Assembly: GCA_965198235.1 (NCBI GenBank)
Contig: OZ240248.1
Location: 1,760,001 to 1,824,000 of the forward strand
Length of the DNA stretch: 64,000 nt
Origin: Candidatus Poribacteria bacterium
GTDB taxonomy: Bacteria; Poribacteria; WGA-4E; WGA-3G
Direction of reading: 5' to 3'
Shown: one piece after another, positions 33,713 through 56,283 of the stretch
How the letters are laid out: each line of letters opens with the position of its first letter
Position numbering within the stretch: position 1 is the stretch's first letter
Program-made: the position numbers and the translations under genes
The notes under the pieces: generated by a model
Told to the model about the DNA's origin: nothing
The model's database searches: none
The model's input: only the letters and a program-made list of their open reading frames with translations

Positions 33713-34117
33713 CGGATACAAACTTTGGAAGGCGAGACCTACACACTATCGGCGATGTCTGGAAAGATCGTTTTACTTGATGTTGGAGCGTCGTGGTGCG
33801 GTCCCTGTAACATGGCGATCCCGGAGGTCAAAACCATCTATAAGCACTTTAGCAAAACCGAGGATGTCGTCGTCTGGGGCATCAATGATGGGGAAACCCC
33901 TCAGAAAGTTCGGGAGTTTTTAGACGAATATCAGCCACCCTGGCCCGTTCTACTTGACCCACATCGGCAGGTGAGAAAGGCTTATCAGATTGAAAGGATC
34001 CCCTTTTTTATCTTGATTGACAAAAAGGGGAATTGGCAATACAGTTTTGAAAGTTCAAATCTCATAAGCGGTCAGCCCTTAATCTGGCTGATTGAAGCAC
34101 TCCTGTCAGATGCGTGA
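33713..34117 (+). pseudogene. 5'-truncated TlpA-family redoxin
   Basis: IQTLEGETYTLS..GKIVLLD..WCGPC. No RBS or N-terminus; begins right after the hicB stop. Confidence 0.7.
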
Positions 34118-36752: not shown

Positions 36753-38147
36753 TTGCATCCAGTGCCCGTAGGGATGGTTTTGCGCGATGCGATGCGTTTG
36801 GCGCAAGCGGTTAACCCAGAGGAAACACTGGACGAACAAATTCTTCAGGAGGCATCCAAATCGCAACCGGTCCCAGAAGAGTTACAACCAAAACTTGGAG
36901 AAGTCGGACAGGACTCAGGTTTAAAGCAGGACCAGAAAAATGTTGAAATCTGCACCCAAAATTTGGTTGCGATTGGCAAAGCAATCCAAGCCTACCAGAA
37001 GGAACACAACGATTTTCCAGAGTGGCTGTCGGAACTCCATCCGAAATACTTGCCAGATGCGAATAGCTTACTTTGTCCAGCAGATGAAGACGGTGGCAAG
37101 ACTTATTTTCTTATCAATAGGGATCCAAAAATGTCCATGAGTTACGACTACCAATTTCACCCTCAGTATCGAGCAACAAAAACTGAGGAACGCCTCATGT
37201 ATGGGGATGTTTTACCGCTTGTCCGTTGCCGACATCATAAGAATCGAGCGTTTGAATGTCTAAACTTGAATTTCGCTTTTAAGGTATTTTGGTCATCTGG
37301 TGTGTACACACCGGATCAGTTGTATGAAACCGTTGAGGGAGCCATTGAAGCATTGGAAAAAGGGCTTCAGCGACAAGCAGATAATGAACGGTTCTTTCAT
37401 GTCTATCGTACACTCGCGCATCTCTATATTGAAGTCGGACGCGAAAAAGATGCCGAGCACCTCATTAATCGTTTCAAATCGGTTATAAAACCTGATGACC
37501 TTCAGGCACATTTTATTCTCAGCAGGATGCTTGAAATGGCGAATCAGCATGAAGAAGTGCTTAAAGTTTTTGAGAATCTTGAGGAGTGGTATCCGGAGAA
37601 CTACCGCGTTCTTGAAGAACTTGCGAGGATTCATGAGGAACTGGGTAATTCCGATCTCGCCGCGGAATATCGGAGAAAGGCGGATCCAATGTCGGAGCTT
37701 GTAGGAAAAGTTGTGCATGGCTTTTCTGCGACAGACCTTGATGGTAAACCGATTTCGCTTCAGGACTATCGTGGGAAAGTTGTCTTGCTTGACTTTTGGG
37801 GAGTGTGGTGTGGTTTCTGCATTGACGAAATGCCGAATCTCAAAAAAGTCTACGCTACCTATAAGGATCAGGGATTTGACATCATCGGTGTTAGTCTTGA
37901 TGATGAGGAATCGGAACTGCGGGACTACATTAAGGAGAACGACATCCGGTGGCGGCAGATTTACAGCGGTGAAAGGTGGGAGGACGATCCACTCGCACAG
38001 CAGTATGAAATTATGGGTGTTCCGGAACAGTGGCTTATTGACAGAGGTGGCAAATTAATCACGCATAAAGCCAGAGGGTTGAAGTTGGAACAACTCGTAG
38101 TGGAAGCACTCAAGGACAAATCTGCAGATCAATCAATAATAGATTAA
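36753..38147 (+). CDS. TPR plus TlpA redoxin protein, probably the truncated remainder of an M56/BlaR1 fusion
   Basis: CTQNLVAIGKAIQAY (DUF1559-like), TPR helices, WGVWCGFC redoxin. An out-of-frame M56-like remnant lies at 36580-36726. Confidence 0.75.
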   Translation: MHPVPVGMVLRDAMRLAQAVNPEETLDEQILQEASKSQPVPEELQPKLGEVGQDSGLKQDQKNVEICTQNLVAIGKAIQAYQKEHNDFPEWLSELHPKYLPDANSLLCPADEDGGKTYFLINRDPKMSMSYDYQFHPQYRATKTEERLMYGDVLPLVRCRHHKNRAFECLNLNFAFKVFWSSGVYTPDQLYETVEGAIEALEKGLQRQADNERFFHVYRTLAHLYIEVGREKDAEHLINRFKSVIKPDDLQAHFILSRMLEMANQHEEVLKVFENLEEWYPENYRVLEELARIHEELGNSDLAAEYRRKADPMSELVGKVVHGFSATDLDGKPISLQDYRGKVVLLDFWGVWCGFCIDEMPNLKKVYATYKDQGFDIIGVSLDDEESELRDYIKENDIRWRQIYSGERWEDDPLAQQYEIMGVPEQWLIDRGGKLITHKARGLKLEQLVVEALKDKSADQSIID

Positions 38148-38488: not shown

Positions 38489-40177
38489 GTGGTAGACTTT
38501 AGCAACACTCTTAGTAGGACAGCAAGTGTGCAGATAGAAGCACATTGGGATCCAATCGAGAATACAGCGAATAACTTACATCGGTCAACAGAAGAAAAGT
38601 TTAATCGAGCCAAGGCACAGTGGCGAGAGCCGGTGGATATGACGTGGGAACAGTGGTTGGAGGTGTTCAATCCCGGACCTGCACATCCGCTGAAGAATTA
38701 CAGCACGGCAGATTTTCAAATCTTTCTTCCACCGTCAACCGTCAATGTCGGGGGTGTCTGGGACTTGGACCCAGAGGGAATTCTCCCTTTTCTACGCCAG
38801 TTTCACCCAAGTGCAACAATGAAAATCCCACGTTATGGCTCCATTCCATCCGATCAGAAAGATGCAAAGGCGTGCTTACGGGCACTTTCGTCTGAATATG
38901 CTGACATCGTTTTCCGAATTCATCCGCGCTTTACACTGGACGCGTCCATTGATGCCTACTTTATGCCAGCGCAATTTGCCGGACATCTGGTAATCAATCG
39001 CGACAACGGAACGGTTTGTCAATGGACGCTATCGCTTCCGAGACGCAATAGTAATGTAGATATCGGTGCTTTTAGAACTCACGATTTGGGGTTCGTTCCT
39101 CGCATGGAGCTCTACAGTTTATCGGAGACGCAGCCAGAATCGATTGCTTGGGAGGTAGCTATCACTGAGGAAGAAGTCGATAAGAAGTTTCAGAAAGCAC
39201 TCTACAAGTTCGCTGAAATTGAATGGACCCCTATTGAAGATGCGGTCGAACTCGCAAAAGCATTGAATCGCCCGATTCATGCGGTACTTTTATTCGGTGT
39301 ACTCGACGATGAATCCTGCTGAGGGACAGGCAAAAGTTTGAGAGCGGGTCCGCTCTCCTCACCGAAAATTATCAATTTGCTCAACACGCACTTTGTGAAC
39401 GTCTGGGTTCTGCTGAGAGAGTTGCCCGAACTGCAGGCGGGTACCAAAGGGGCAGCAGCTGGTGCCTTGGCAACGAAACTTTGGCAGCATTACTCCGATT
39501 CTGTGGACATCCTAACACTGACCCCCGAATTGGAAGTGATTGAACATCTGCCCAGCAAAAGTTTATTGCATCTCGATTATCTACCTCGTAGTGAGCGAAT
39601 ACCCCGATATTTAGAATTGCTAAAGTCATCCGCGGGTGTGGAAGTTGCGGCACAAAAGCTGAGGAAACTTGAAGAGCAGTCCCCCGAAAAGCACAGTCTA
39701 CCCCGCAGATTTGCCAATATCTATGAAGAATTTGGAAACCCTGTGCCTGATTTTTCTGCGACAGATCTTGATGGAAAACCGATTTCGCTCCAGCAATATC
39801 ATGGGAAAGTCGTCCTACTCGATTTTTGGGCGGTCTGGAGTGGTTTCTGCATCGGAGATATACTGAAGGTCAAGAAGATTTACGATACCTATAAAGATCA
39901 GGGATTTGACATTATCGGGGTTAGCCTCGACACCGATGAAATGAAGCTGCGAAATTACCTTAAGAAAAATAACATCCCTTGGCGACAGATTTTCAGTGGG
40001 CAAGAACGGCAGAGTCCACTTGCACAACAGTATGACGTTCGCTCTATTCCAGCACGGTGGCTTATCGATAGAGATGGCAAGCTGATCGCTCAGGAAGCCC
40101 ATCACAAGTTGATCGCCCGTAAAGGCAGGACGGCAGATTTAGAGCAGCTTGTGGCAGCGGCAATCGAAAACTGGTAG
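38489..40177 (+). CDS. selN: Selenoprotein N-like protein fused to a C-terminal TlpA redoxin
   Basis: Track ORFs 38435-39322 and 39338-40177 share one frame: LLFGVLDDESC-TGA(39320-39322)-GTGKSLRAGPLSSPKIINLLN, matching the SelN motif WGALDDQSCUGSGRTLR. Upstream FMPAQFAGHL, NVD and GFVPRMEL also match SelN. GTG 38489 follows AGGAGG. Confidence 0.9.
39340..39357 (+). promoter_or_regulatory. Putative bacterial SECIS element
   Basis: GAGAGCG-ggtc-CGCTCTC perfect hairpin 17 nt after the TGA. Confidence 0.75.
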
Positions 40178-51182: not shown

Positions 51183-51586
51183 GTTATTAAAACCTGGGCA
51201 TCGTTCCACTGCGTTTCACGATGGTGTCTGGTGAATTCTGATGTGACTGGGGAGATGTACGGTTTCTAAGAGGGTGGGAGAACCCAAAACCTGCCCTACA
51301 ACAAAGTAGGCACAAGACCTACCTCTACAACCGCTTATAATTCAGAGGCGGTTAGACTTAACCGAAAACCACCGCGAAACGAAATTATGCCTTAAATGGC
51401 ATAATTTGTCTTTGCTTTACATTTGGAGCGGTTTAACCATCAACTCGACTCCGTTATAAATGTTAAAGCACGAGTGTTTTTGCTTGGGGTGTTTTTGCTT
51501 GGGTATTTCTGCGTATTGCTTGGGTGTTTCTGCGGATTTCTTCGATGGTTAACAGATTTAATCGTTTAAAAAGGATAGTTAAAAAT

Positions 51587-54500
51587 ATGGATTCACGAAC
51601 CAAACGCTTTGTTATCACTGTTGTCATACTTGCGGTTGTTGGAGGGCTGGGTGCAATCTGGGTTAACCTTTATCCCGACTTCCTATGGTTTAAGGTAGTG
51701 GACTATTTCAGCGTTTACACTAAAATTCTCACAACAAAAATACTCGTCGGTGCAATTGTTGGCGTTTGTTATTTGGCGATCCTTCTAACGAACCTTGCCC
51801 TAATCTATCGATTCACACCCGCGCATCTCAGTCCGGCTTTTATGGGGGGGGCGGATTTCATGGGTGGTGACGCAAACAACCCCGGTGATACGCGAAAACT
51901 AATTTACGGTGGACTCACACTTCTTGCGGTTCTTTTTAGTGTCATGATGGGTTACGCAGCCAGCGATCGGTGGGAGGTCTATCTACGCTACGTCAATGCT
52001 GAGAACCTCGCTTTCCGTGCCGCTGCCCCCATTATTGTAGAAGAAAGCCTCAATTCTGCCGAAATTCCTGTCTCGCAACTGGAACTCCAAGCGAAAAACA
52101 TAAGAGTCGGGGATCAGATAAGCGTCCGAGTAAATGGGGCAGATCAGGACGCGCGGGTTGAAGCTATTTTGGATAACGCCATCCGTTTGAATACGCCTGT
52201 TCAGATAGAACTGGGACAGAAAGCGTTCTTCACGTCTCCTGCACGCGATCCTATCTTTGATAAGGATGTCGCCTACTACGTTTTCAGGATGCCAGCGGAG
52301 CGTTATGTTTGTGGGACGCTTTTCGGTATCTTTATGTTAGTGACGATATTTGCAATCGTCATCTACTTTTTTCACGGGCTAATCACGGGAGATACCAACC
52401 AGTTTCGGTTCCGTCCACCTTTCAACGTGAAAGCACATTTGTTCACTCTTGTAGGTTTGACACTCCTATTCCGAGCATGGAACTACCGCTTTGCTATGTT
52501 TGATCTGCTCTACACAACAAACGATGTTGTCCGTGGTGGTGGTGGATACGCCGCGATGAAGGCACGACTCCCTATTTTGTATTTCTTGATTGGACTTACA
52601 ATTCTGTGTGCCATCATTTTCATCATTAGTATTTTCTTGAGACGCAACACCCTCGCTTTTGGCGGACTTGCCGTATTCCTGATTGCTGGATTCCTCGGAC
52701 AAGTCTATCCTATCGCTATACAAAGATGGCAAGTTGAACCCAGAAAACAGGTTTTAGAAGCAGATTATATCAACTACAACATCAAAGCAACGCTCCAAGC
52801 ATACGGCTTGGCTGAGAACACTGTGACGGAAGAAGAATATCCGCTGATAGAACAACTCAGTTATGATGACATAAGAAGTCCCGAAAACGCTTCTGTTTTC
52901 AATAGCATTCGTCTCTGGGATTGGCGTCCCTTGCGTAGAACTTTCCGACAACTTCAGGAATTGCGGACACAATATGATTTCAGCGATGTTGATATTGATC
53001 GCTATGTCGTTGATGATGAGATTCGACAGGTAATGCTCTCTGGACGGGAACTCAATATCAACGAACTCCCTGTCGAAATCAGAAGCGACTGGTATAAGCA
53101 GACTTATACCTACACGCACGGCTACGGCGCAGTTGTTAGTCCCGTTAACGAAATTGATAACGGCAAACCTAACATGTACATTCAAGGATTGCCCCCGATT
53201 GACTATGACGAGCAGTGGCAACATCGGTTCAGCGAAACACCGGGACCCCGTATCTATTATGGTGAGCGCACAGATCGCTACGTTATCGTACATCCAGAAC
53301 GGAGCCAAGGACTTGAGTTTGACTATCCGCAGGAAGGGCAACAATACGCCGAGTATGCATATCAAGGAAAGGGCGGCGTGCAACTGAACTCTTTCTGGCG
53401 CAAAATGGTATATATGCTTAAGTTCGATAACGAAATTAACTTCGTGCTCCCTGGTGAAATTTCACCGGCAAGCCGTATTCTCTATGAACGAAACATCAAA
53501 AGACGGATCCAAAAAATCGCACCCTTCTTACGGTACGATGGGGACCCTTACATCATTCTCTATAATGGCAGATTGGTTTGGATGATTGATGCCTATACCA
53601 TCACACACCGATATCCTTATTCCGTTTCAATGCAGGAGTTCGTCAGCGAGAGAAGACGACAGATTGCAAATGCACAGCGAGATGGTGAACCGTGGGGAAA
53701 CTACATCCGAAATTCTGTTAAAGTCATCGTTGATGCTTACGATGGCACTGTCGATTTTTACGTTATGGAGCGGGAACAGGATCCAATCGCGGAATGTTAT
53801 CGAAGAATCTTCCCAAATCTTTTCAAGTCGTTTGAGGAGATGCCGGATGAACTCAAGGCGCATATCCGATACCCGACATCCATGTTCCTTATCCAAGCTC
53901 GCGTCTATCAGGATTATCACATGAAAGACCCAGTGACCTTTTACGCAGGGGAAGATAAATGGGAGATCGGCAAGGAACTTTATGACAATACGGATGCCCA
54001 AACACGGCAAACCGCTCCTCCGCAGCCAAGGAGTCCTTTCGCACCGCAGCAGGTCCCCCAAAGTTCCGGTGCAAATGGACAACCCGTTGAACCCTATTAT
54101 GTCATCATCAGACTACCGGGGCAGGAGCAATCGGAATTTATGTTGATGTTGCCGTTCACACCGCTCAACAAACCGAATCTTACTGCATGGCTCGCTGCCC
54201 GATGCGACTTGCCACAATATGGGCAGCTCCTTGTTTACCGATTCCCAAAAGGGAAACAGGTCGCAGGACCGATGCAGGTGGAGAACTTTATTAGCCAAGA
54301 ACCGGAGATTTCACAGCAGATTAGCCTCTGGAATACGCAAGGGTCCCGCGTCTTACGCGGAAATCTGTTGATTCTGCCCATGAACAACTCGCTACTCTAT
54401 GTTGAGCCTATCTATATACAATCCGAAGATGAAAAAACCGCCATTCCCGAATTACGGCGGGTCGTTATCGGATATGGGAACGAAGTCGTATGGGGTGAAA

Positions 54501-54760
54501 GTCTTGAGGAAGCACTCGTCAATATGTTCGGACAGGGAACAGGGGTCCAGACCACCACTGCGACAATGACAACTGACGACATCGGCGCGGCTGATATCGG
54601 GGATATTCAGACCTCGTTGCAAGGGCGCATTGAACAAGCAAACCGTTATTTCAATCTGGGACAGGAGGCACTACGTACGGGTGATTGGACAGAATATGGA
54701 CGGTATCAGCGACTTTTAGAGGAAACTTTACGTCAACTTGAAGGAAATATACGGGAATAG
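51587..54760 (+). CDS. UPF0182 family membrane protein
   Basis: DFLWF, DPIF, IRLWD, DVDIDRY, YTHGYG, NYIRNSVK and LYVEPIY. Confidence 0.93.
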   Translation: MDSRTKRFVITVVILAVVGGLGAIWVNLYPDFLWFKVVDYFSVYTKILTTKILVGAIVGVCYLAILLTNLALIYRFTPAHLSPAFMGGADFMGGDANNPGDTRKLIYGGLTLLAVLFSVMMGYAASDRWEVYLRYVNAENLAFRAAAPIIVEESLNSAEIPVSQLELQAKNIRVGDQISVRVNGADQDARVEAILDNAIRLNTPVQIELGQKAFFTSPARDPIFDKDVAYYVFRMPAERYVCGTLFGIFMLVTIFAIVIYFFHGLITGDTNQFRFRPPFNVKAHLFTLVGLTLLFRAWNYRFAMFDLLYTTNDVVRGGGGYAAMKARLPILYFLIGLTILCAIIFIISIFLRRNTLAFGGLAVFLIAGFLGQVYPIAIQRWQVEPRKQVLEADYINYNIKATLQAYGLAENTVTEEEYPLIEQLSYDDIRSPENASVFNSIRLWDWRPLRRTFRQLQELRTQYDFSDVDIDRYVVDDEIRQVMLSGRELNINELPVEIRSDWYKQTYTYTHGYGAVVSPVNEIDNGKPNMYIQGLPPIDYDEQWQHRFSETPGPRIYYGERTDRYVIVHPERSQGLEFDYPQEGQQYAEYAYQGKGGVQLNSFWRKMVYMLKFDNEINFVLPGEISPASRILYERNIKRRIQKIAPFLRYDGDPYIILYNGRLVWMIDAYTITHRYPYSVSMQEFVSERRRQIANAQRDGEPWGNYIRNSVKVIVDAYDGTVDFYVMEREQDPIAECYRRIFPNLFKSFEEMPDELKAHIRYPTSMFLIQARVYQDYHMKDPVTFYAGEDKWEIGKELYDNTDAQTRQTAPPQPRSPFAPQQVPQSSGANGQPVEPYYVIIRLPGQEQSEFMLMLPFTPLNKPNLTAWLAARCDLPQYGQLLVYRFPKGKQVAGPMQVENFISQEPEISQQISLWNTQGSRVLRGNLLILPMNNSLLYVEPIYIQSEDEKTAIPELRRVVIGYGNEVVWGESLEEALVNMFGQGTGVQTTTATMTTDDIGAADIGDIQTSLQGRIEQANRYFNLGQEALRTGDWTEYGRYQRLLEETLRQLEGNIRE

Positions 54761-54887
54761 CCGTCAGCAATCAGCGGTCAGCAGTCAGCAAGAGGGTATA
54801 ATTTCACCAGAAACCTCTTTACTGATGGCTGATAGCCGTCAGCCGATGGCCATTCCCTGACTGCTACTAAAAAAGGAGGTGAAACAG

Positions 54888-55133
54888 ATGGCTCTTGATT
54901 GGAAACCACGGCACCGGGACATGATTATTGGGGATATCCCATGGTTAGCCAGAATTGGTGATAAAGCCAGTGCAAAACTGCAGGGTATCCTCGGTGAATA
55001 TATCTACCCGTGACCGCAGGATAAGCTGTTCCTGGAGGAACACGAGATAAGTGCTGAGGCGTTCACTGAGATGGTGAAAAATAACCCCTCAGACGAGGAA
55101 ATGATTACCGCTATGAAGAAATTGGATAGTTAG
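54888..55133 (+). CDS. DUF5069-like small selenoprotein (not in ORF track)
   Basis: AAGGAGGT RBS. Sequence MALDWKPRHRDMIIGDIPWLARIGDKASAKLQGILGEYIYP-TGA(55011-55013)-PQDKLFLEEHEISAEAFTEMVKNNPSDEEMITAMKKLDS, 81 aa. Confidence 0.8.
55027..55042 (+). promoter_or_regulatory. Putative bacterial SECIS element
   Basis: TGTTCC-tgga-GGAACA hairpin 13 nt after the TGA. Confidence 0.7.
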
Positions 55134-55215
55134 CTTAATAGCGGTCAGCCGTCAGCGATCAGCAAGAAAACCTCTTTGCTGACGGCTGACCGCCATTAAC
55201 ACGGAGATCTATTTT

Positions 55216-56283
55216 TTGGATTTAACAAAGTACCGGAACCAGATTAACGAGATTGACGACCAAATTTTAGTACTGCTACAGAAACGGGCTGAGATTTCCA
55301 AGCAGGTCGGTGCGGTGAAAGCAGAAACAGGCGTTGCAGAAGTCTATGTTCCGCACCGGCAGAAGCAGATTATTGAACGTTTGAAGGAACGAAATTACGG
55401 CAAGTTCCCTGAAGCCGCACTTGAGGCGATCTGGACCGAGATTTTATCTGCGTCCCGCTCCTTGCAGGATCCGGAGCGGGTAGCCTTCCTCGGGCCGGTT
55501 GGCAGTTTCGGGCACTTGGCGGCTCTATCTCATTTCGGTACGTCAACTGAGTTTATCCCTGTCCGCCCACAGATTGACATTTTTACTGAGGTTGAATCTG
55601 GTAGAGCGGACTACGGTGTGGTGGCTATTGAAAATTCAGCACAAGGTGCTGTTCGTGATGTTTTGGAACGTTTCCAACGTACGCCGTTGTGGATTTGTGC
55701 AGAGACATTCCAACCGATAAAACAGCACCTTTTATCAAAGTCACCGCTCGCGGAAATTCGGTGTGTTTACTCGCATCCGCAACCTTTCGCGCAATGTAAG
55801 ACATGGTTAAGGCGACATCTCAGTGGTGCTGAGCAGATCGAGGTCATCAGTACGTCTGAAGCGGCGGAACGCGCCGCACAAGAGTCATCAGCAGCTGCCA
55901 TTGCAAGTGAACTCGCAAGCGAAATTTATCAGGTTCCAATCGTCGCAAACGCCATTATGGATGACCCTGATAACACAACCCGCTTCTTTGTGATCGGAAA
56001 GCGCGTCCCAGAGCCAAGCGGGCACGATCGGACTTCGCTGTTTTTCGCAATTCCGGACAAGGTTGGGGCACTACACCAAGCCTTGGGTATTTTAGAGCAA
56101 GCGCAATTGAATCTGAGTTATTTAGAATCTTTGCCGTCGCGAGCCAAACCGTGGGAATATATCTTCTTTACTGAGATGGAGGGTCATATTGCCGATGAAC
56201 GCGTCATCGTGGCACTTGAGCAGCTTGAAGAATTGTGTCGGCACGTCAACGTTCTCGGATCCTATCCGCGCGGGTCTTTTTAA
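55216..56283 (+). CDS. pheA: Chorismate mutase/prephenate dehydratase
   Basis: RNQINEIDDQI, AFLGP, IENS, SHPQ, NTTRF and LGSYP. Confidence 0.95.
   Translation: MDLTKYRNQINEIDDQILVLLQKRAEISKQVGAVKAETGVAEVYVPHRQKQIIERLKERNYGKFPEAALEAIWTEILSASRSLQDPERVAFLGPVGSFGHLAALSHFGTSTEFIPVRPQIDIFTEVESGRADYGVVAIENSAQGAVRDVLERFQRTPLWICAETFQPIKQHLLSKSPLAEIRCVYSHPQPFAQCKTWLRRHLSGAEQIEVISTSEAAERAAQESSAAAIASELASEIYQVPIVANAIMDDPDNTTRFFVIGKRVPEPSGHDRTSLFFAIPDKVGALHQALGILEQAQLNLSYLESLPSRAKPWEYIFFTEMEGHIADERVIVALEQLEELCRHVNVLGSYPRGSF

Follow-up and report, generated by a model that had tools for sequence, protein, structure and literature searches.

Evidence for a selenoprotein form of the short DUF5069 subfamily in Candidatus Poribacteria

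We analysed a 64,000-nucleotide (nt) stretch of a Candidatus Poribacteria genome (GenBank assembly GCA_965198235.1, contig OZ240248.1, positions 1,760,001 to 1,824,000 of the forward strand). This whole stretch is called the window below, and positions are numbered within it unless another contig or locus is named. The window contains an unannotated 81-residue gene with an in-frame TGA at codon 42. As judged from sequence comparison, this is very probably a real gene encoding a real selenoprotein, a selenocysteine (Sec) member of the short DUF5069 subfamily. The features that make up the gene are as follows.

54873..54880, plus strand: ribosome-binding site, AAGGAGGT, with a 7-nt spacer to the ATG; read directly from the sequence.
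54888..55133, plus strand: coding sequence of the predicted 81-residue selenoprotein, short DUF5069 form; ATG at 54888, TAG at 55131-55133; translated with TGA as U.
55011..55013, plus strand: in-frame TGA, codon 42, predicted Sec in the motif Y-P-U-P-x-D; homologues have a Cys codon or residue at the aligned site.
55027..55042 (core 55028-55041), plus strand: hairpin of selenocysteine insertion sequence (SECIS) type, with core GUUCC, loop UGGA and GGAAC; recognized by its invariance across Sec forms.

The initial annotation of this DNA had described a ribosome-binding site followed by 41 sense codons, the TGA, 39 further sense codons and a TAG, and all of these coordinates agreed when we re-read them from the sequence. 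It had also stated that each half of the gene falls under the cutoff for open reading frames (ORFs). The ORF list made with genetic code table 11 indeed contains only a 44-amino-acid (aa) ORF at the gene (54879-55013), and the second half yields none. The 81-residue product has one Sec and no Cys.

To ask how far this arrangement is conserved, as the initial annotation had proposed, we searched 176 genomes of the phylum Candidatus Poribacteria in six frames and found a match to the 81-residue gene in 169 of them. By family, the matches numbered 110 of 111 genomes in f1, 11 of 11 in f2, 29 of 29 in f3, 7 of 7 in f4 and 11 of 11 in f6-f9. None was found in f5 (0/3), f10 (0/2) or f11 (0/1), and the f5 genomes also gave no match to SelA (0/3). 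Among the matches listed in this phylum search, every full-length row except that of genome G009 has exactly one TGA. In a second search, of 21 genomes, 12 full-length rows contained one TGA and 8 had no stop; the latter came from all eight genomes of family f8. We then parsed 69 Poribacteria loci, excluding L059, which is cut by a contig end. Sixty-one read Y-P-U-P/A, with TGA, and eight read Y-P-C-P, all from family f8. Codon 42 is TGA in 59 of 59 distinct Sec-form coding sequences; in the Cys forms of f8 it is TGC (seven) or TGT (one). Loss of the Sec trait was considered as the reason for the f8 Cys forms and rejected: SelA is present in seven of the eight f8 genomes, and the eighth genome is 61% complete.

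The sequence downstream of the TGA is conserved as protein. Among 57 distinct sequences, the mean pairwise ratio of non-synonymous to synonymous polymorphism (pN/pS) was 0.25 for codons 43-80 and 0.155 for codons 2-41. Third positions past the TGA vary while the residues are kept; Asn66 is encoded by AAC or AAT in 29 sequences each, and Pro67, Val63 and Ala75 by four codons each among the orthologues. By these measures, the frame 3' of the TGA is under purifying selection. The initial annotation had named homologues ending at YIYP as evidence that would count against a selenoprotein. Gene calls of that kind exist, but they stop at the TGA, and in the DNA the conserved frame continues; a full-length frame with one TGA runs throughout the phylum.

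A hairpin was reported to start 13 nt after the TGA. This holds when an extra T-A pair in this genome (55027/55042) is counted; the conserved core, made up of GTTCC (55028-55032), TGGA (55033-55036) and GGAAC (55037-55041), has its onset 14 nt past the TGA. When 58 distinct Sec-form sequences were aligned (leaving out two with N), the 14-nt core was invariant save for one G-C to A-U double change (L056). One G.U variant of the core was seen, in L127. RNAalifold predicted precisely the five core pairs, and no consensus lower stem was found beyond this 5-base-pair (bp) core. With the optional sixth pair included, 95.1% of cells pair, versus 28-78% when the partners are slid. Codons 48-51 read TTC CTG GAG GAA in 57 of 57 in-register sequences, with zero synonymous variation, although Leu residues conserved at other places in the gene are each encoded by five or six codons. 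Across the eight Cys forms, both the codons and the residues at these four positions differ (FLEK, FLER, FLQR, WLQK, WLRK and FLKQ). Consistent with this contrast, all 61 Poribacteria Sec loci have TTCCTGGAGGAA after the TGA, and none of the eight Cys loci has it after the Cys codon.

Several results weigh against this hairpin. Its single-sequence fold z-scores, 0.05 for 55005-55075 and -0.97 for 55011-55060, are no better than those of shuffled controls. Covariation is thin, with double changes in three cells only (one in the core and two in the sixth pair). A scan of 54700-55300 against Rfam (E<=10) returned chance fragments of microRNA, small nucleolar RNA and RNase P families and no SECIS family. 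Because single-sequence stability is at chance level, the significance of the hairpin rests on comparison between genomes; and because covariation is thin as well, the case for a SECIS is built on the synonymous-site invariance and the Sec/Cys contrast. Taken on those grounds, the data support a hairpin that would behave as a SECIS.

We also looked for the machinery that such an element would serve. The genome (5.17 Mb in two contigs) contains matches to SelA (517.7 bits) and to the wing domain of SelB (70.1 bits), and a tRNA-Sec (78.1 bits, above the Rfam cut-off) that adjoins selB. Five AIRS-domain matches are SelD candidates. Five AhpC/TSA-family matches and one Rdx/SelW-like match each contain one in-frame TGA at the expected redox position; spans given for these genes, all on contig C1, are 1595931-1596299, 1106391-1107209, 2532553-2532921, 3191163-3191549 and 1567743-1567955. 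At least four of the six have a hairpin onset 14 nt past the TGA, and two have the loops GGA and GGU, as read by eye. Since these hairpins share spacing and loop character with that of the 81-residue gene, they provide an internal control. The genome appears rich in selenoproteins. Within the window itself there are also three stop-free AhpC/TSA-domain matches, at 33713-34039, 37701-38057 and 39734-40087. They lie within 7 kb of one another and form what is, by domain content, a predicted local cluster of thiol-peroxidase-like or redoxin-like genes.

To determine whether Sec forms occur beyond Poribacteria, we scanned GTDB genome contigs with a divergent homologue (P0014), which returned 56 loci. 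The Latescibacterota set comprises 20 loci, 19 so labelled and one grouping with them. Every one of the 20 carries TGA at the site together with the identical core hairpin, which in many is lengthened to 7 bp; protein identity to the Poribacteria forms is about 55%. In loci from Chloroflexota, Bacillota/Clostridia and Eremiobacterota, the residue is Cys and this hairpin is missing. Metagenomes scanned with another truncated homologue, P0040, yielded 10 loci, among them a third Sec lineage (L153 and L156, both metagenome contigs), in which TGA is followed by a conserved full-length frame. Its close relatives L154, L155, L157 and L158 have Cys and no such hairpin. The stem of L153 and L156 differs from that in the window, having 7-8 bp, a loop of GGA or UGGAU and an onset 12 nt past the UGA, but the GG of its loop is as far from the UGA as that of the window gene, as counted by eye from the sequences. 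The L153/L156 protein also has a C-terminal tail resembling that of Bacillota-type Cys forms. Fold z-scores were -2.42 (L097), -1.92 (L153) and -1.63 (L156) for Sec forms, and -0.39 (L155) and -0.12 (L048) for Cys forms. In a protein tree, the Poribacteria (Sec and Cys) and Latescibacterota forms make one clade (100/99) that excludes the Cys forms of Chloroflexota and Bacillota; its interior is a polytomy and the root is a midpoint root, so that the direction of Sec/Cys change is not readable from the tree. Poribacteria and Latescibacterota both have members in sponge-labelled samples.

The relationship to DUF5069, which the initial annotation had proposed, is borne out by a hidden Markov model search of the read-through protein: it matches Pfam PF16798 at 49.8 bits (gathering cut-off, 27 bits) over residues 7-77, spanning the TGA. 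A genome-level search with PF16798 gave 44.3 bits, with one TGA inside the match. The match covers only positions 4-74 of the 133 in the profile; the C-terminal half of the domain is absent. The protein belongs to a short DUF5069 subfamily of about 81-100 aa, whose Cys-bearing members occur in Chloroflexota, Bacillota and further lineages. A profile built from 27 orthologues and searched against 1.84 billion proteins yielded 636 representatives at E<=0.001, and the alignment of these 27 contains no second conserved Cys.

The proposal that the TGA sits on a conserved Cys, as in the motif that the initial annotation gave for DUF5069, holds for the majority of the family. We examined the residue aligned to position 42 in 177 domain rows, made up of the best 150 library matches and earlier matches. 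It is Cys in 111, and Cys is likewise found in the DUF5069 structure 3OMD described below, but it is not universal: Ser occupies the site in 30 rows, mostly from tandem multi-domain proteins. Trp is found in seven rows, all gene calls of TGA forms on short contigs, and the residue is absent from 15, 13 of these being gene calls whose last residue is position 41, as read by eye. This genome encodes a 427-aa paralogue with three tandem DUF5069 domains (G000, C1: 834782-836029), which has G-E/D-x-S-G and no Cys at the site. Two- and three-domain DUF5069 proteins are common among the library matches, usually with Ser at the site.

An AlphaFold model of the protein consists of a short beta-hairpin and four helices, with Sec42 immediately preceding the helix at 43-51. 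3OMD (Leptospirillum rubarum, 145 aa, uncharacterised) was recovered both by sequence (E 2.5e-16, with Cys at the aligned site) and by fold (VIA-align Z 10.8, root-mean-square deviation 2.4 over 79 residues; Foldseek template-modelling score 0.75 on the query). The two proteins have in common the motif G-x-Y-x-Y-x-C-P-x-D, the Cys of 3OMD aligning with Sec42; the window protein differs in having Sec for Cys and in lacking the C-terminal half of the domain. DUF5069 members are without known function, so this comparison informs fold and motif. Foldseek against the PDB found 3OMD, all other rows being at E>2, and a search of the ESM Atlas with L048, a natural Cys orthologue, gave no usable match.

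Cys or Sec residues positioned at the N-terminus of a helix tend to make good nucleophiles, and for this reason we take residue 42 to be the candidate reactive centre. The repeated exchange of Sec and Cys at this site likewise suggests a nucleophilic or redox role. A CxxU or UxxC motif of thioredoxin type is absent, the 81 residues containing one U and no C. Since a resolving Cys is missing, the lone Sec would depend for turnover on an external thiol, on a partner protein or on another copy of the protein itself. Other results speak against a functional assignment of this kind. DUF5069 domains without Cys exist, three of them in this genome; the confidence of the model is moderate (mean predicted local distance difference test score, 73.3); and among the matches listed, a wide VIA-align search found nothing but 3OMD above Z 4.1, the remaining matches being small helical DNA-binding domains at noise level. 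Domain fusions were considered as a functional clue and set aside. In the 22 longer or related proteins scanned, the partners were an AI-2E transporter, cupin (three), dienelactone hydrolase, DUF2249, a methyltransferase, a CO-dehydrogenase flavoprotein C-terminal domain and an amino-acid kinase, which are heterogeneous and share no coherent theme.

Our working model can be stated as follows. The SelA/SelB/tRNA-Sec system would recode UGA42 to Sec, directed by the intragenic hairpin 14 nt past the UGA, whose apical loop would present GG at +21/+22. The hairpin would impose both the peptide F-L-E-E and its codons. The product is predicted to be small and mostly helical, its Sec directly preceding helix 2 within the motif Y-P-U-P-x-D. 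The Sec may act as a reactive nucleophilic or redox centre and would then have to be recycled by one of the three routes named above. In Poribacteria, the gene lies directly 5' of pheA and may be co-expressed with it. The neighbouring features of the window are listed here.

51524..54760, plus strand: UPF0182 family protein, the upstream neighbour (Pfam PF03699, 794.6 bits).
55135..55199, no strand: inverted repeat with 22-nt arms, 95% complementary and 21 nt apart, in the 82-nt gap before pheA.
55216..56283, plus strand: bifunctional chorismate mutase/prephenate dehydratase of pheA type (Pfam CM_2, PDT and ACT).

In most Poribacteria loci, and in every one of the eight Cys-form loci, pheA follows directly 3' in the same orientation; at five loci (L062, L088, L089, L091 and L096) there is no pheA within the 1.5 kb fetched. 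The UPF0182 adjacency is kept within the order and not in more distant families. Outside Poribacteria, no conserved neighbourhood partner was found in the loci scanned. At one locus of family f4, a fusion of glutaredoxin and pyridine-nucleotide-disulphide oxidoreductase lies directly upstream (L050: 1762-2985, minus strand; one locus scanned). This fusion is a possible redox partner of the Sec protein.

The role of the Sec is where an alternative to a catalytic centre carries most weight. The protein could be a real selenoprotein in which Sec binds a metal or metalloid, or carries sulfur or selenium, or it could be a redox-sensing regulator of PheA. We regard this as possible, though on balance unlikely. 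In favour of such roles are the lone Sec without a resolving Cys, the small helical fold, and the fusions of short DUF5069 to cupin (3 of 22 proteins) and DUF2249 (1 of 22); but the fusions are heterogeneous and also involve a transporter, a methyltransferase, a hydrolase and kinase fragments. Also in favour is the adjacency to pheA, which is kept across the Poribacteria class for Sec and Cys forms alike. Against this, and against pheA linkage as a guide to function more generally, the linkage was not found in three Latescibacterota loci, nor in the scanned Chloroflexota and Bacillota loci. Among the loci scanned, the linkage is thus seen only in Poribacteria and may reflect conserved gene order rather than function.

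Public sequence runs showed that the locus is present in RNA libraries. Among 24 listed runs with part of 54600-55600, 14 are RNA libraries, and the best ones are labelled sponge metagenome. We compared RNA-library contigs from four runs in three studies. A contig of 303 nt matches the window exactly over 54887-55150 and thereby takes in the entire gene with its TGA. The gene is also spanned by contigs from relatives, and no difference is listed at 55011-55013 or 55028-55041. As assembled sequences, these contigs do not amount to proof of transcription and give no transcript ends. A promoter scan found no promoter-like site, and a terminator scan found one site, on the opposite strand, no more than in shuffled sequences.

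The gene is flanked by GTCAGC-rich palindromic elements, at 54760-54850 and 55135-55199 in the window. Related GTCAGC-rich motifs of 11-14 nt occur in 7-36 copies in the genome, and RNA-library contigs break, invert or carry insertions at the flanking elements. These look like a family of intergenic repeats similar to repetitive extragenic palindromic (REP) elements; the inverted repeat at 55135-55199 is repeat-element-like or terminator-like.

The initial annotation knew of no described Sec form of DUF5069, and we found none either. A full-text literature search for DUF5069 or PF16798, whose reach did not extend to supplementary tables, gave no match, and no family in NCBIfam release 20.0 matched the read-through protein at E<=1. 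In the accessible parts of the literature on selenoproteins of Poribacteria and sponge symbionts, only hydrogenase and unrelated topics came up. A 2026 review of prokaryotic selenoproteomes lists, in its Table 1, 119 families and subfamilies with domain identifiers (PMC13188914). Within the portion of that text available to us, PF16798 does not appear, and two '5069' strings, which in 12 of 18 places are not a DUF or Pfam name, were taken to be parts of accession numbers. DUF5069 is not among the nine new selenoprotein families of deep-Sep, as far as the available part of that report goes (PMC12013277). In the protein collection, the Sec forms are present as 41-aa entries, one of them named 'hypothetical protein', on up to 118 contigs, and a Cys homologue is named 'DUF5069 domain-containing protein'. 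It is nevertheless conceivable that the family already stands as a selenoprotein in some published list, given that large screens exist (deep-Sep, BSepDB and a survey of groundwater metagenome-assembled genomes) whose full family lists are in supplements. We consider this improbable in view of the absence of both names from the full-text literature, the NCBIfam result and the entry of these proteins in databases as 41-aa hypothetical proteins.

Two readings of the TGA other than Sec can be dealt with more briefly. One is that it is decoded as another amino acid, either Trp under genetic codes 4 or 25, or Cys or Trp by near-cognate read-through. Six database proteins do have W at the position, but they come from contigs of 530-914 bases, and related genomic DNA has TGA. 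Because the contigs are short and the related genomes have TGA, these entries probably reflect the code chosen by the gene caller. Among the 177 domain rows, W is found only in such calls of TGA forms, and natural homologues carry Cys. The genome has a complete-looking Sec system, and TGA also serves it as an ordinary stop codon, if a rare one in the window (2 of 25 frames of at least 300 codons, the others ending in TAG (12) or TAA (11)); several orthologues of the 81-residue gene itself terminate at TGA. With TGA otherwise used as a stop in this genome, a reassigned code is not the explanation for TGA42. A hairpin conserved at synonymous sites is likewise expected for SelB-dependent decoding and not for a change of code, and we judge non-Sec decoding to be highly improbable. 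Equally improbable is that the TGA is a true stop, ending a 41-residue peptide or a decaying pseudogene with a fortuitous frame downstream: public gene calls end there and the codon is used as a stop in this genome, but the 39 codons that follow are conserved as protein in at least two phyla (with the pN/pS of 0.25 given above), fall inside the same Pfam match and the same structural match to 3OMD, and are colinear over the full length with Cys-codon orthologues.

With Sec as the preferred decoding of codon 42, the gene can be compared with known selenoprotein systems. E. coli fdhF is the textbook case of an intragenic SECIS bound by SelB. Like bacterial genes read by SelB, the 81-residue gene has an in-frame UGA, an intragenic hairpin with G residues in the loop, Cys orthologues and a genome encoding SelA, SelB and tRNA-Sec. 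It differs in that its conserved hairpin is very small (a 5-bp core and a 4-nt loop) and has neither a consensus lower stem nor an Rfam match.

The protein also resembles the small redox selenoproteins, such as the SelW-like/Rdx, AhpC/TSA and thioredoxin-like families, as these are treated in the available part of the review (PMC13188914): it is short, has a single Sec and Cys orthologues, and is detected by the same logic. It co-occurs in this genome with Rdx and AhpC/TSA Sec candidates. It differs from the small redox selenoproteins of that text in having no CxxU or UxxC and no Cys, a helical predicted fold and no NCBIfam selenoprotein model. The recoding mechanism is standard, and what is new is the family, with its uncharacterised, apparently non-thioredoxin-like fold and lone Sec, the compact SECIS and the spread over at least two phyla with an identical hairpin.

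A more far-reaching account would combine several of these points. An undescribed helical family with a lone Sec would have moved, as gene and identical SECIS core together, between Poribacteria and Latescibacterota, which are unrelated phyla; a separate Sec/Cys switch would have occurred in the third lineage; and the protein would be a redox partner or switch of PheA that links selenium to aromatic amino-acid synthesis. We consider this account doubtful and offer it as speculation.

These findings would add a selenoprotein family to the 119 families and subfamilies of PMC13188914, and one whose predicted fold appears to lie outside the thioredoxin-like folds that dominate there. They would also correct a systematic annotation error, in which 41-aa hypothetical proteins are called on well over a hundred public contigs. 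The compact natural SECIS, with its 5-bp stem, 4-nt loop and visible constraint on F-L-E-E, may help in modelling how SelB recognizes its targets in phyla that have received little study. For DUF5069 itself, the gene would provide a first functional handle: Sec and Cys have been exchanged at one site in at least three lineages, which marks this residue as the likely reactive centre of the family.

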